From: Verrucomicrobiota bacterium
Lineage (GTDB): Bacteria > Verrucomicrobiota > Verrucomicrobiia > Limisphaerales > CANJSG01
NCBI GenBank assembly: GCA_038209745.1
Contig: JBBQXJ010000108.1
Location: 1-12,280, forward strand
DNA: 12,280 nucleotides
Direction: 5' to 3'
This document shows, in pieces, positions 458 through 4,958 of this stretch (its first letter is position 1; every line of letters starts with the position of its first letter). The notes beneath the pieces were generated by a model. That model did not search any database. It was not told the DNA's origin and worked only from the letters and a program-made list of their open reading frames with translations. The position numbers and the translations under genes were made by a program.

Positions 458-1984
458 TCAGGTCACCAATTTCCGATGTTTCCCGAACACCCCGCGCAGC
501 GCCTCGGAGGTATCGTCCTGAAGGGCTTGGAGTTCGGCGTAACGGGCGGAGGCTTTGGCGTTGGGCGTGGCGGTCTCGGTCTTGTTCAGGGTCACGAAGG
601 TGTCGGTCAGGTCTTCGATGGCGACCTTGTCGCCCTGTTGCAGGCGCCAGCTCCAGAGGGCCTGGAGGGCGGCGCCGTAGGCCGCACCTTCGCTGACCTT
701 CAGCGTGACGACTTCGGAGTTGAAGATATCGGCCATGATCTGGCGCCAGAGCTTGGACTTGGCCCCGCCACCAGTGGCACGGATCTGGGTGGCCTTGACC
801 CCGAGTTCGGTCAGGCGGCGCAGGCCGTAGTTCATGCCGAGGGTGACACCTTCCATGGTGGCGCGGGCGAAGTGGGAGGCGGTGAAGGTGCGGGTGTTTA
901 CGCCGAGGTAGACGCCGGTGCCGTCGGGGATATTGGGGGTGCGTTCACCTTCGAGATAGGGGAGGAGCATGAGGCCGTCACAACCGGCGGGGGCCTTGGC
1001 CGCCGTTTTCTCGAACGCTCCGTGGTCGAGGCCGAAATCCTTGCGGACCATCTCGGTGGCGACGGTCACGTTCATGGTGCAGAGGAGCGGCAGCCAGCGA
1101 TTGGTGGAATCGCAGAAGGCGGCGATCTCGCCCCGGGGGTCGACAACCGGCTTGTCGGCGCAGGCGTAGATGGTGCCGCTGGTGCCGAAACTGGCGGTGA
1201 CGATGCCAGGCCGGGTATTCCCGGTACCGATAGCTCCCATCATGTTGTCGCCACCGCCGGCGCTGACGAGCGTGCCCACGTTCAGACCAAGAGCCTTCGC
1301 GGTGGCCGCCTGCAAGGCCCCGGCGGGCTGGTCGCTCGAAGAGAGCACGGGGAGCTTGCCCATGAGGTCGCTGTCAATGGCATTTACGGCGGCTTCGCAC
1401 CAGCGGCGTTTGCGGACGTCCATGAGTGCAGTGCCGGAGGCGTCGCCATATTCCATAAAAGCGTGGCCGGTGAGCCACCAGTTCAAGTAGTCGTGCGGAA
1501 GAAGGACGGTGGCGAGCTTGGCGAAATTCTTTGGCTCATGCTTTTTCAGCCAAAGTATCTTGCTGGCGGTGAAGCCGGGGAGGACGGAGTTGCCAATGGC
1601 CTTGATAGTGGCTTTGGGGCCCCCGAGGGCGGCGGTGATATCGGCACATTCCTCGGCGGTGGCGGTGTCGCACCAGAGCTTCGCGGGCCGGATAACCTGA
1701 CCGGACTTGTCGAGCGGGACGAAGCCATGCTGCTGGCCGCTGACCCCGATGGCGACGACGTCGGAGCCGCTGGCCTTGGCGGCCTTGAGCGCCGCTTTGA
1801 TGGCCTCGCCGGTGGCGTCGATCCAGTCCTGAGGACGCTGTTCCTTGACGCCCGCCGGGAGGTTCGGAATCAGGTCGTAAGAGGCGGAAGCGGCACTGAG
1901 GACCTTGCCATTGCGGGCGTCCACAACAAGCGCCTTGGTGGACTGGGTTCCGGAATCAATGCCAATAAGGAGCGTCTTTTTCAT
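458..1984 (-). CDS. xylB: Xylulokinase (FGGY carbohydrate kinase), 508 aa
   Basis: Motifs IGIDSGTQSTK, GVSGQQHG, AKLWCD, GFTASKILWL, LLPHDYL, GGGDN, GTSG, LPYLEGERTP, RATMEGV and GGGAKSKLWRQI. Start reassigned to ATG at 1984 (MKKTLLIG) because homology begins there. Confidence 0.93.
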   Translation of the reverse strand: MKKTLLIGIDSGTQSTKALVVDARNGKVLSAASASYDLIPNLPAGVKEQRPQDWIDATGEAIKAALKAAKASGSDVVAIGVSGQQHGFVPLDKSGQVIRPAKLWCDTATAEECADITAALGGPKATIKAIGNSVLPGFTASKILWLKKHEPKNFAKLATVLLPHDYLNWWLTGHAFMEYGDASGTALMDVRKRRWCEAAVNAIDSDLMGKLPVLSSSDQPAGALQAATAKALGLNVGTLVSAGGGDNMMGAIGTGNTRPGIVTASFGTSGTIYACADKPVVDPRGEIAAFCDSTNRWLPLLCTMNVTVATEMVRKDFGLDHGAFEKTAAKAPAGCDGLMLLPYLEGERTPNIPDGTGVYLGVNTRTFTASHFARATMEGVTLGMNYGLRRLTELGVKATQIRATGGGAKSKLWRQIMADIFNSEVVTLKVSEGAAYGAALQALWSWRLQQGDKVAIEDLTDTFVTLNKTETATPNAKASARYAELQALQDDTSEALRGVFGKHRKLVT

Positions 1985-2163
1985 GTTTGTGCCACGCGGA
2001 CAATCTGACAATTTCGACACTGAATCTGCTGACTGTCCATCCAAACGTCTCCGACATTTCATTCACCTCGATCCAATTTGGCTCACACATCCCGTCGGTA
2101 GAAATGGCCAACCGCTCGACCGTCGCCCACCGGCGACGAATGAAAGTCTCAGTCAAATTAGGC

Positions 2164-2191
2164 TTGCCAGCCAACTCATCAATGGTATCTC
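2164..2191 (+). promoter_or_regulatory. Possible sigma70-type promoter for the RRM gene
   Basis: TTGCCA (2164-2169), a 16-nt spacer ending in TGG, then TATCTC (2186-2191, an imperfect -10 with an extended TG). This would start transcription just before the structured leader. Confidence 0.35.
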
Positions 2192-2203
2192 AAGACCCGC
2201 GTG

Positions 2204-2297
2204 TTAGACAGCTCGTCCCTCAAGGACCTGGTAAATCCTCAGTTGAACGTTAGTAATTCAGTGGCGATTTGAAACCCGACAGTCGGGAACAGTCTGA
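2204..2297 (+). ncRNA. Putative structured 5' leader RNA (four-helix junction) of the RRM gene
   Basis: P1 UUAGAC 2204-2209 / GUCUGA 2292-2297 encloses three hairpins. P2 is GUCC 2215-2218 / GGAC 2224-2227. P3 is AAAUC 2233-2237 / GAUUU 2266-2270 with inner UUGAA 2243-2247 / UUCAG 2257-2261. P4 is CCCGA 2275-2279 / UCGGG 2283-2287. Confidence 0.55.
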
Positions 2298-2329
2298 GAT
2301 TAGGAAGTTAGCCTGGCAGCAATCATTGA

Positions 2330-2716
2330 ATGAGCACGAAATTGTTTGTTGGAAACCTTTCCTTCAACACCACTGAAAACGACATCGAAGACGCATTCGC
2401 CGCCCACGGCACTGTTTCCCGGGTCGACCTGATGATGGATCGCATGAGCGGGAAGTCCCGTGGCTTCGCCTTCGTCACCATGGAATCGCCCGAAGCGGCC
2501 CAAGTCGCAGTCAGCGCCATGAACGGAGCCCAGCTGGACGGACGGGCCTTGACCGTCAACGAAGCTCGCCCCCGTGAAGAACGTCCCCCCGGAGGCGGTG
2601 GTGGAAGCGGTGGTGGAAGCGGTGGTGGAAGCGGCGGCGGCGGATACGGCGGTGGCGGTGGCGGTGGCGGCCGCAGCAGCGGCGGCGATCGCGGGCCTCG
2701 TCGCGAGCGCTATTAA
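2330..2716 (+). CDS. RNA recognition motif (RRM) RNA-binding protein with glycine-rich C-terminal tail, 128 aa
   Basis: RNP2 motif LFVGNL, RNP1 motif RGFAFVTM and a GRALTVNEARPREER segment, followed by a Gly/Ser/Arg-rich tail. Confidence 0.96.
   Translation: MSTKLFVGNLSFNTTENDIEDAFAAHGTVSRVDLMMDRMSGKSRGFAFVTMESPEAAQVAVSAMNGAQLDGRALTVNEARPREERPPGGGGGSGGGSGGGSGGGGYGGGGGGGGRSSGGDRGPRRERY
2595..2630 (+). repeat. Perfect 12-bp tandem repeat (GCGGTGGTGGAA)x3 encoding GGGS units
   Basis: Three exact copies at 2595, 2607 and 2619, followed by degenerate GGC/GGT runs. Confidence 0.9.
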
Positions 2717-3100: not shown

Positions 3101-3130
3101 GGCAGGCTTTACCGCCTGCCTTTTGCGTTT
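3101..3130 (+). terminator. Rho-independent terminator after infA, overlapping the 3' end of the convergent methyltransferase
   Basis: GGCAGGC (3101-3107), loop TTTACC, GCCTGCC (3114-3120), followed by TTTTGCGTTT. Confidence 0.75.
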
Positions 3131-3879
3131 TCTGGCAGGTCGCCGGGCTTTCTGGCTTCGACGAGGAGAAAATGGCCGCGCCGAATGCAAAGCGGCTCCA
3201 GAATCCGACTCAACCAATCTGGCAGGGGAGTCATACCCAACGACGTAACCGATGCGTCGAATCCTATCTTCCTAAACATCTCCTGCGCCTGCAGCACGCC
3301 GAGGGCTCGAACATGCCCCGTCACGCCGGCGAATGCGGGATCGGTAATCGGCACGTCTTCTGGTATCTGCTCCTGATAGTGCAGACCCAGCGGATTACCA
3401 AGATACCAACCGCAACAGCGCATCAGGGTAAACGGTGTGTATCCCAAAACCATAGCCCCGAGGTTGAGCAGGCTCGTCAGGTTTTCAGACGTGATCAGGG
3501 CCGTCCCTCCCGGTTTTAAAACACGGAACGCTTCGGAAGCAAAGAGCCGCGAATTGTGAAGATGTTCGATGACCTGCGACGAATGCACGACATCGAACGA
3601 GTTGTCCGCATAGGGCCAGATTCCATTGAGATCAACTGACTGGACCTCGATTCCACGCGTGAGAGCCCGCTCCATCAGTGAAGGCGCTGCTTCGATGCCA
3701 CAGAACCGGATCGGTTTATGTTTGAGATATTTGAAGAGAAAGCTTCCGTCCCCGCAACCCACATCCAACAAAGCCTTTGGCTGGAGGCGGGCAACACGCT
3801 CGCCGCTCCAGTCGGTGCACCGAACCGCTCCGGTCACGTAGCCTGACACAGTGAGACGTTGCAGCAGTTTTACGATCAT
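3109..3879 (-). CDS. Class I SAM-dependent methyltransferase (Methyltransf_11-like), 256 aa
   Basis: Motif I LLDVGCGDG, then DNSFDVVHSSQVIEHL and FRVLKPGG. Start reassigned to ATG 3879 (MIVKLLQ) because the longer ORF overlaps the GT2 gene out of frame. Confidence 0.88.
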   Translation of the reverse strand: MIVKLLQRLTVSGYVTGAVRCTDWSGERVARLQPKALLDVGCGDGSFLFKYLKHKPIRFCGIEAAPSLMERALTRGIEVQSVDLNGIWPYADNSFDVVHSSQVIEHLHNSRLFASEAFRVLKPGGTALITSENLTSLLNLGAMVLGYTPFTLMRCCGWYLGNPLGLHYQEQIPEDVPITDPAFAGVTGHVRALGVLQAQEMFRKIGFDASVTSLGMTPLPDWLSRILEPLCIRRGHFLLVEARKPGDLPENAKGRR

Positions 3880-3947
3880 AGGTATCCGTCCGGTTATAGA
3901 TTGGACGTTCGGATGTTCTGAAGGCGTCCGGCAATAGTCGAGCCCCC

Positions 3948-4958
3948 TCAAGGTTTTAGCTTCTGTTGCGGTTGAAGCTTTGCCACCAGCTTTTGGTCGC
4001 GTGAATGCATCTTGTGGGTCATCACCCCCCATACCGTTCCGACCACGGAGGCCAAACATGCCGGAAAATGCCACAGCCAGCGCGGATCCTTCGAGCGAAA
4101 AAAGCCTCTGGCGACATGCCAAGCAGGCCCGAAAAAACTGACGCAATAGGCACACGCAAGCCATCCCGGCACGGGCGGTTTCTGCTCCAACCACATGTTG
4201 CCAAACTCTCGGCGGACATTCAGGAAGTGGACGGTGGCGCGACGGCGCTTCCGGAGAAAATTGATCAGTGTGTCCACGTAATAGTGGTGAACGCCGCGGC
4301 CGGAGATTCTGAGCCACTCCCGCTTACCAGAACGCATGAGGAAGAGCGCGACGTGGGTGTCCTGAAACTTTTGGCCGGCTTTCACTAAGTCAAGGTCCGC
4401 CCTCCGATAGACGAACCCATTGGCTCCGAGAGGATACGATTCCGTCCCCGCGCGCAGCTTCCAAGTCTCGAACTCCCCCGCAGTGGAAACCTGCTCCGGA
4501 TTTGCGCTCATCAGCCAGCAAAGCGGGTCGCTGATATGGAGCAACTGGGTGAGATAGACACAGAGCGAGGTCATCTTGGCCGAAGGCAGATAATAGGCCT
4601 CGACACCAAGAGCCTGAGGCCGGTCGCGAAGCGCCGTGACGGCCAACTCCACATAGTCTGGATGAGTGATCTCGTTGTCGGCGTCGATGAAGACAACGAA
4701 TTCACCCGCGGCCCGGCCAAGTGCCACTCCCTTGCTTTCCTCCATGTTGCGACTGGCCCGGTCATCGATCACGACGGCGCCGTGCGCCCGACCGATCTCC
4801 TGGGTCCCGTCAGTGGAACCGCCATCCGCGAGAATCACTTCGTAGCGATCATGCGGATAGGTCTGGCGCGCGATCGACTCCAGACAATTGCCGAGCATGC
4901 CCGCGGCATTGAGCACGGGAATCACGAAGCTCACTTTTGGCAGCGGCGAATCAGCCAT
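3948..4958 (-). CDS. Glycosyltransferase family 2 protein, 336 aa
   Basis: Motifs VSFVIPVLN, EVILADGGSTDGT and DxD motif FIDAD, with hydrophobic C-terminal segments. Confidence 0.92.
   Translation of the reverse strand: MADSPLPKVSFVIPVLNAAGMLGNCLESIARQTYPHDRYEVILADGGSTDGTQEIGRAHGAVVIDDRASRNMEESKGVALGRAAGEFVVFIDADNEITHPDYVELAVTALRDRPQALGVEAYYLPSAKMTSLCVYLTQLLHISDPLCWLMSANPEQVSTAGEFETWKLRAGTESYPLGANGFVYRRADLDLVKAGQKFQDTHVALFLMRSGKREWLRISGRGVHHYYVDTLINFLRKRRRATVHFLNVRREFGNMWLEQKPPVPGWLACAYCVSFFGPAWHVARGFFRSKDPRWLWHFPACLASVVGTVWGVMTHKMHSRDQKLVAKLQPQQKLKP

Follow-up and report, generated by a model that had tools for sequence, protein, structure and literature searches.

A conserved, structured leader RNA of RRM genes in Verrucomicrobiota, with a candidate fold switch at the start codon

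A leader between a sugar-kinase gene and an RRM gene

The stretch of DNA analysed here (the window; 12,280 nt) comes from a Verrucomicrobiota bacterium of the order Limisphaerales (GenBank assembly GCA_038209745.1, contig JBBQXJ010000108.1). In it, a gap of 345 nt separates two divergent genes, one encoding an FGGY-family sugar kinase and the other a small glycine-rich RRM protein, whose residues 5-74 match Pfam RRM_1 at 77.1 bits (gathering cut-off 20.7). The gap contains a leader RNA motif with the following parts, listed with the flanking genes and the predicted promoter:

458-2062, minus strand: FGGY sugar-kinase ORF; likely ATG near 1984, as judged from the sequence
2164-2191, plus strand: predicted promoter, with a -35-like TTGCCA (2164-2169) and a weak -10-like TATCTC (2186-2191)
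2202-2299, plus strand: conserved leader RNA motif, four-way junction (covariance model R1, 90.0 bits)
2204-2209, plus strand: P1 5' strand UUAGAC, pairing with 2292-2297
2215-2227, plus strand: P2 hairpin GUCC-cucaa-GGAC (strands 2215-2218/2224-2227), short and lineage-specific
2228-2232, plus strand: junction CUGGU (consensus YUGGU), unpaired and nearly invariant in alignments, its UGG kept class-wide
2233-2270, plus strand: P3, a long interrupted arm (strands 2233-2247/2257-2270), from RNAalifold and pairing counts
2261-2271, plus strand: candidate switch box GUGGCGAUUUG (family consensus GUGAUGAUUUG), in the P3 3' strand and complementary also to bases just before the ATG
2271-2274, plus strand: junction GAAA between P3 and P4, nearly invariant in alignments
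2275-2287, plus strand: P4 hairpin CCCGA-cag-UCGGG (strands 2275-2279/2283-2287), stem conserved, loop variable
2288-2291, plus strand: junction AACA (consensus AACR), nearly invariant in alignments
2292-2297, plus strand: P1 3' strand GUCUGA, pairing with 2204-2209
2298-2329, plus strand: linker to the start codon, with a conserved GGCAGCAA element (2315-2322) and an anti-box AAUCAUUG (2321-2328)
2330-2716, plus strand: gene for the 128-residue glycine-rich RRM protein (Pfam RRM_1)

An earlier note, made from the sequence alone, had proposed that four helices tile this leader, and a check of the sequence finds all four at the positions it gave; the four helices and the leader are present in the window. 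Within P3, the lower stem is formed by AAAUC.UCA with UGG.GAUUU and the upper hairpin by UGAA-loop-UUCA. The note was also right that the ATG (at 2330) lies 32 nt past P1 and has no well-spaced Shine-Dalgarno sequence, the only purine-rich run (AGGAAG, about 2302-2307) being too far upstream for a normal one.

Two further observations concern the surrounding genes. At 2594-2630 a tandem GGTGGTGGAAGC-type repeat encodes the glycine-rich tail of the RRM protein, and the length of this tail seems to vary among strains, since an insertion of 24 nt follows 2594 in one metagenome contig. On the minus strand at 3109-4958, a methyltransferase ORF (3109-4317) and a GT2 glycosyltransferase ORF (3948-4958), as listed, have about 370 nt in common; translation of the methyltransferase probably begins further downstream.

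The boundaries of the leader are drawn by its relatives. A 321-nt DNA query (2100-2420) matched 35 of 41 related genomes, and nearly all alignments begin sharply at query position ~103, that is, at window position 2202, upstream of which the relatives have only a TTGC box in common. The conserved block (2202-2299) is thus slightly wider than P1, and the linker, too, is conserved as far as the ATG. In 88 of 129 copies the TTGC starts 34-41 nt before the motif, with a peak at -37, a position that would put the transcription start site (TSS) at about 2198-2202. A sigma-70 consensus scan around the leader returned no promoter site; both the promoter at 2164-2191 and a TSS near 2200 are accordingly given as predictions from sequence. 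One 166-nt contig, from two sequencing runs guessed to be RNA, covers 2210-2373 and is silent on transcript start and on expression.

Folding energies say little about a single leader. The four-way junction is the minimum-energy fold (ViennaRNA) both for 2204-2329 and for 2202-2299. The longer segment folds at -24.8 kcal/mol, compared with -29.5 ± 3.5 for shuffled sequences (z = +1.37; 186 of 200 shuffles fold as well), and the shorter one is no better placed (z = +0.07; 96 of 200). Seven other copies score between -0.03 and -1.33 (+0.07 to -1.33 for the eight copies including that of the window), indicating no unusual stability, and the reverse strand of the leader folds about equally well (-24.3 kcal/mol). 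As such energies do not exceed those of shuffles, one sequence cannot show a fold beyond chance, for which the support comes from comparison with other genomes alone.

Conservation, covariation and the link to RRM genes

R1, a covariance model for the leader (95 positions, 27 pairs), was built from 19 leaders with the coding sequence excluded. It matches 130 of 151 sampled genomes of the order, with one to six copies in each and E-values down to 1e-28. Samples of 151 genomes each from the class and from the phylum gave 82 and 16 matched genomes, three of the latter in other classes. Several families yielded no R1 match; in the class sample, for example, none of the 17 genomes of genus g112 was matched.

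In the order alignment, which was fitted to the covariance model and therefore leans towards its structure, 93.3% of cells in 68 copies (64 distinct rows) can pair, compared with 27-59% when partners are slid, and both sides have changed in 18 of the 27 pairs, a number reached by none of 500 shuffles (6.0 ± 1.6). The paired share is 84.7% for P1, 87.2% for P2, 97.8% and 94.8% for the two parts of P3, and 99.1% for P4. Compensatory changes, which the earlier note had looked to as the test of its helices, are found in all four of them (4 of 6 pairs in P1, 3 of 3 in P2, 9 of 13 in P3 and 2 of 5 in P4), those in the three modelled pairs of P2 coming from few sequences. The class alignment, fitted in the same manner and leaning likewise towards the model, comprises 101 copies in which 88.1% of cells pair (23-58% when slid) and 26 of 27 pairs have varied on both sides, a count that none of 500 shuffles attained; class-wide, P3 pairs at 95.4%, 93.9% and 89.6% with many such changes, and P4 at 95.1%. 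Compensatory variants of P4 in the two alignments include CCCGG/CCGGG, CCCAC/GUGGG, UCCGG/ACGGA and CCCUC/UAGGG. An independent alignment of 19 close sequences (MAFFT and RNAalifold) recovered P3 and P4 only, and a count over the four helices in these 19 showed little covariation.

The strand can be read from the same alignments. Frequent G-U pairs identify the plus strand as the RNA-sense strand: among the 64 distinct rows of the order, P1 columns contain UG 48 and 50 times, a P3 column contains GU 28 times and a P4 column 23 times, which bears out the earlier argument from wobble pairs for a plus-strand RNA.

The four-helix junction proposed for the window stands for this order and its near relatives, while other clades of the class differ. 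What is constant class-wide is a core of YUGGU, P3 (a lower stem with a freely covarying apical hairpin), GAAA, P4, AACR and the P1 3' strand. Large sister clades have the P1 5' strand, CAGUGA (with UCACUG), immediately next to this core, making a three-way junction, whereas in the order of the window that strand sits further upstream, with the short P2 hairpin inserted. P2 is therefore lineage-specific; together with the distal position of the P1 5' strand, it is limited to this order and its near relatives. Linkers in the three-way-junction clades (e.g. L135, L141 and L143) carry a conserved CCUCCUACCGCAGCAGAAAG of their own, followed by an A/G-rich run; CCUCC could pair with this purine run, and these linkers may represent a different expression platform on the same core.

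Almost all leader carriers among the matches listed in a pattern scan have titles that name Verrucomicrobia or Verrucomicrobiota, with Limisphaerales, Chthoniobacterales and Opitutaceae among them as well as one isolate of Verrucomicrobium and one Kiritimatiellae metagenome-assembled genome (MAG). The copy in the cultured Verrucomicrobium sp. BvORR034 (L171) scores 64 bits. Some leader records are titled otherwise: Bifidobacteriaceae or Bifidobacterium (L147, L161, L177, L204, L222 and L223), Limnocylindria (L193 and L205), Methylomirabilota (L224) and an Akkermansia muciniphila MAG (L225). These score 47-101 bits, like the order's own copies, and are probably mislabelled or misbinned.

Which genes the leader precedes is strikingly uniform. 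An RRM gene follows 146 of 151 leader copies, the others including two DEAD-box helicase genes and two IF-1 genes. At 131 R1-matched loci, an RRM ORF starts within 120 nt in 124, the spacing from motif to ATG being 23-42 nt in the first 64 copies checked; the remaining seven consist of an RRM gene 142 nt away, an RRM gene with an in-frame stop, a truncated locus, two DEAD-box helicase genes (one genus) and two IF-1 genes (two orders). Twenty further low-scoring R1 matches all precede RRM genes. A second sample of 80 loci among the matches listed, which may have genomes in common with the 151-copy sample, comprises 75 RRM genes, one IF-3 gene (IF3_N, 107 bits), two unclear cases and two that were too short. 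The earlier note recorded an impression that RRM genes of related Verrucomicrobiota are preceded by similar leaders; these counts bear it out, and the DNA query and R1 searches show the leaders ahead of RRM orthologues to be conserved in both sequence and structure.

The non-RRM carriers (34-75 bits) are L100:1501-1593 and L101:1501-1593 for the helicase, L104:1501-1594 and L078:1501-1595 for IF-1, and L162:392-485 for IF-3. Such carriers hint that genes for RNA handling and translation initiation form a small regulon. In the L100 helicase leader, a perfect local hairpin (GAAUCC-UCAA-GGGAUUC) lies 8-40 nt past the motif; the 5' arm has the same sequence as the P3 5' strand and could compete for the box.

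The genome from which the window comes has two leader copies, that of the window and one on another contig (C2:76443-76536, 89.7 bits); nhmmer and a regular-expression search of the genome found no more, a weak match on contig C26 lying inside an ORF. Two of the three RRM genes in this genome, which also encodes one cold-shock-domain protein, are thus preceded by the leader. For the third (G000:C44:32003-32212; L268) the model has no match on the gene strand, even with filters off, and its best match there is 8.9 bits on the other strand. The leader is, in short, a structured element upstream of an RRM gene that is shared by paralogues. Elsewhere, tandem RRM genes about 700 nt apart each have their own leader copy (G316:C10:419202-419980, G304:C3:234584-235373, G321:C1:199680-200466 and G338:C472:2458-3258; L123, L137 and L145); in L123, the RRM gene of the first copy has an in-frame stop after 10 codons.

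Catalogues contain no counterpart of this family. As the earlier note had anticipated, a search against Rfam 15 (cmscan) gave no match, either in the whole window at the gathering score or at E-values up to 10 in 1950-2450. Literature searches on bacterial RRM genes, on cyanobacterial rbpA UTRs and on structured or cis-regulatory RNA in Verrucomicrobia turned up no account of the leader, and the main texts of the 2017 and 2024 motif surveys, so far as these were available, mention neither RRM nor Verrucomicrobia; a motif given solely in the supplement of the 2017 survey would escape such a search, though Rfam 15 is empty too. The leader family is previously uncatalogued. Its nearest counterpart by gene context is the Chlorobi-RRM motif (Rfam RF01697; Weinberg et al. 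2010, PMC2864571), which, in the portion of that paper available, is likewise a candidate cis-regulatory RNA upstream of RRM genes in one bacterial phylum, for which autoregulation is the natural guess. The phylum differs, however, and the RF01697 model, which the library searched includes, does not match the leader, so that the likeness is one of gene context alone.

Alternative pairing over the start codon

The 3' strand of P3, together with the UUUG that follows it (consensus GUGAUGAUUUG), is complementary not only to the P3 5' strand but also to the bases that touch the AUG (CAUCAC-AUG or AAAUCAUC-AUG). A duplex between this box and the tail before the start codon, of -6 kcal/mol or stronger and ending between -5 and +8 of the AUG, can form in 64 of 113 unique copies and, by the same criterion, in 49 of 70 copies of a second sample among the matches listed. 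Boxes pair better with their own tails than with swapped ones, at -6.66 compared with -5.61 ± 0.15 kcal/mol (0 of 5000 permutations) and, in a replicate among the matches listed, at -7.73 compared with -7.08 ± 0.15 kcal/mol (0 of 5000), in tests that overstate the signal because kin sequences have both box and tail in common.

Compensatory cases therefore weigh more. In L071, all three strands are altered together (C to U in the P3 5' strand, box GUAAUGA, tail CAUUAC). L058 combines GGGAUGAUUUG with CGAAUCAUCC, keeping the tail pair although the P3 pair is broken; L111 combines GUGGUGAU with AUCACCAC, and L075 UUGAUGAUU with GAUCAUCAA. Some copies have UUCG with CGAA where others carry UUUG with CAAA. 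A fixed-column test (MAFFT, all 113 copies) lends modest support: 62.4% of cells pair, compared with 21-38% when slid, apart from a slide of +3, at which the 3-nt periodicity of UGAUGA raises the share to 80.9%. In this test both sides have changed in 17 cells, compared with 10.7 ± 2.7 in shuffles (reached by 10 of 500).

Computed energies place the two folds close together. Of 14 leaders, eight had a junction constraint that matched P3, and for these the junction and start-hiding folds lie 0-7 kcal/mol apart; the start-hiding fold is the minimum-energy fold in 7 of the 14, among them the second copy of the window's own genome. Energies computed at 37, 20 and 5 °C do not shift towards the junction fold; at 20 and 5 °C they move slightly towards the start-hiding one.

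The pairing has a limited distribution, being missing from the three-way-junction clades and from other classes. It is weak in the window itself (box GUGGCGAUUUG, tail AAUCAUUG), where four Watson-Crick pairs are accompanied by one mismatch and three wobbles; in L002, the closest relative, eight box/tail pairs are kept. In favour of the switch, CATCACATG is not a general start context in the genome of the window, where it occurs 17 times (about 35 expected). This complementarity between box and pre-AUG bases, with some compensatory changes, is new in this analysis and, as a pattern in sequence, suggests a fold switch that would hide the start site.

Function and rival explanations

Comparison across genomes establishes the conservation of the leader, its covarying helices, its location where transcripts are predicted to begin and its almost exclusive association with RRM genes, and firmly supports a conserved, structured, cis-acting leader RNA, which probably controls the amount of RRM protein made. 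The reading of the earlier note, a cis-regulatory leader RNA of the RRM gene, is in this sense supported; its suggestions for function were that the leader might act as a thermosensor, a stability element or an autoregulatory binding site. We consider it reasonably likely that the leader is a cis-acting element that works as a two-state switch at the start site, set by the RRM protein and perhaps also by temperature. Control of initiation through two mutually exclusive folds is the most likely mode of action, and the switch itself is supported, short of proof.

Under this reading, the 5' end of the RRM mRNA (2202-2299) would fold into a junction of P1, P3 and P4, to which P2 is added in this order. 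With the P3 3' strand on the P3 5' strand, the junction would be built and the start codon left free; with the same strand on the bases touching the AUG, the start site would be hidden, in an mRNA that has no usable Shine-Dalgarno sequence. The RRM protein, by contacting either the AUC-rich strand once displaced or the conserved, single-stranded bases of the junction, could set the balance between the folds, perhaps together with temperature, and so exert negative feedback on its own synthesis; this feedback might extend to the few helicase and initiation-factor mRNAs that carry the motif.

We infer that the leading candidates for the effector are the RRM protein itself and cold. The protein is favoured because the leader is linked almost exclusively to RRM genes and is common to paralogues, and because its invariant single-stranded bases suit binding by an RRM. 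It is favoured too by the rbpA, rbpB and rbpC genes of Bacteroides thetaiotaomicron, which encode RRM-1 proteins and, according to the parts of a 2026 bioRxiv preprint available to us (PMC13370968), have 5' untranslated regions (UTRs) of 122-155 nt, are induced by cold and regulate themselves and one another negatively in a way that depends partly on the UTR. These UTRs resemble the leader in protein family and in length, but belong to another phylum, and conserved structure is not described for them in those parts of the preprint (PMC13370968). A natural target is not, to our knowledge, known for any of the present RRM proteins, unlike ribosomal proteins with their site on rRNA.

Two well-studied kinds of leader offer parallels. 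Leaders of ribosomal-protein operons are bound by the encoded RNA-binding protein, mimic its rRNA site and block initiation; like them, the RRM leader is a structured 5' leader that combines conserved unpaired bases with covarying helices, protein binding being only proposed here. In Escherichia coli, the cold-shock RNA-chaperone gene cspA has a long 5' UTR whose alternative folds decide access to the start site. Our leader would likewise give a small RNA-chaperone gene a long 5' UTR, and alternative folds are proposed for it at the start site. CspA, however, has a cold-shock domain rather than an RRM, and the RNAs are unrelated, with no match to the Rfam cspA model; unlike cspA, the leader has unpaired junction bases that are invariant class-wide and is used by several paralogues and, in rare cases, by genes for a helicase, IF-1 or IF-3. 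According to a citation in the available part of the Bacteroides preprint (PMC13370968), the expression of cspA is also under feedback from its own protein.

Direct sensing of temperature comes a strong second among the readings and may act jointly with the RRM protein. In its pure form, an intrinsic thermosensor of the cspA type, in which a protein-free change of fold sets translation or stability across a limited group of cold-shock genes (RRM, DEAD-box helicase, IF-1 and IF-3), is in our view possible without being probable. Genes for helicases, IF-1 and IF-3 belong to classes that are induced by cold in model bacteria, and the set downstream of the leader fits this pattern; the two competing folds have similar energies; and the authors of the Bacteroides work, where RRM-1 genes combine cold induction with long UTRs, raise a thermosensor as a question (PMC13370968, in the parts available). 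Simple thermometers, however, do not usually need junction bases that are nearly invariant across a class, and the slight movement of computed energies on cooling is towards the fold that hides the start, a direction that kinetic trapping could reverse.

More speculative, and improbable as it stands, is a proposal in which one regulon spans the phylum, reports the capacity for RNA folding and has the leader as its shared operator. Here the junction fold would form first, during transcription, and allow translation, and the more stable start-hiding fold would be reached only with enough RRM chaperone or at high temperature.

The remaining readings are weaker. It is quite unlikely that the leader is a constitutive element that does not switch, either a 5' structure protecting against RNases or a platform recruiting the 30S subunit to an mRNA without a Shine-Dalgarno sequence. 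Its position at the predicted extreme 5' end and the want of a well-spaced Shine-Dalgarno sequence would suit such a role, as would the three-way-junction clades, which do without alternative pairing at the start site; a protective hairpin, however, would not call for some 20 unpaired bases without variation, nor for confinement to a single class of genes, and the compensatory changes between box and pre-AUG bases would be left unexplained. Very unlikely is a riboswitch in which a small molecule or ion would bind the junction as aptamer, with the box/pre-AUG pairing as expression platform: the architecture is aptamer-like, with covarying helices around invariant junction bases and a mutually exclusive pairing over the start site, but the downstream genes encode RNA-binding and translation proteins rather than enzymes or transporters, and so suggest no metabolite, and no riboswitch in Rfam matches. 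Chance pairings, or a DNA-level operator or promoter element, would agree with the shuffle-like energy of the single sequence and with the similar folding of the reverse strand, but are scarcely credible given the both-side changes in 18 (order) and 26 (class) of 27 pairs that no shuffle reached, the G-U pairs, which on the other strand or in DNA would be C-A mismatches, and a block that spans from the predicted TSS to the ATG.

Three other candidates were tried and rejected. An upstream ORF or leader peptide does not agree with the NUG of the CAUGG junction, which varies among CUG, AUG and UUG, or with loop insertions and deletions that are not multiples of three. GUGAUGA as a kink-turn or C/D box fails because the opposite strand pairs with it in Watson-Crick fashion and covaries, and the CUGA partner is absent. 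A scan for intrinsic terminators, as an attenuator would require, found none in 1900-2900, P4 being followed by AACAGUCUGA.

What the leader offers is a concrete RNA for experiment: about 95 nt of defined structure, with a testable candidate switch, that implies a small regulon of RRM proteins, a DEAD-box helicase, IF-1 and IF-3. Its conservation extends over a whole class, and a few genomes in other verrucomicrobial classes carry it as well, within a phylum for which we know of almost no RNA biology. Bacterial RRM proteins have only recently been recognised as global RNA regulators and as factors in cold adaptation, and how their own level is controlled is a point left unresolved in the available parts of the 2026 Bacteroides preprint (PMC13370968). 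If the RRM protein binds the leader, the invariant junction bases would be the first natural high-affinity target of this family in bacteria. Should the regulon proposal hold as well, the cell would gauge its own RNA-chaperone activity and couple RRM proteins, DEAD-box helicase, IF-1 and IF-3 through a single RNA, a cold-shock logic built on RRM proteins instead of CspA.
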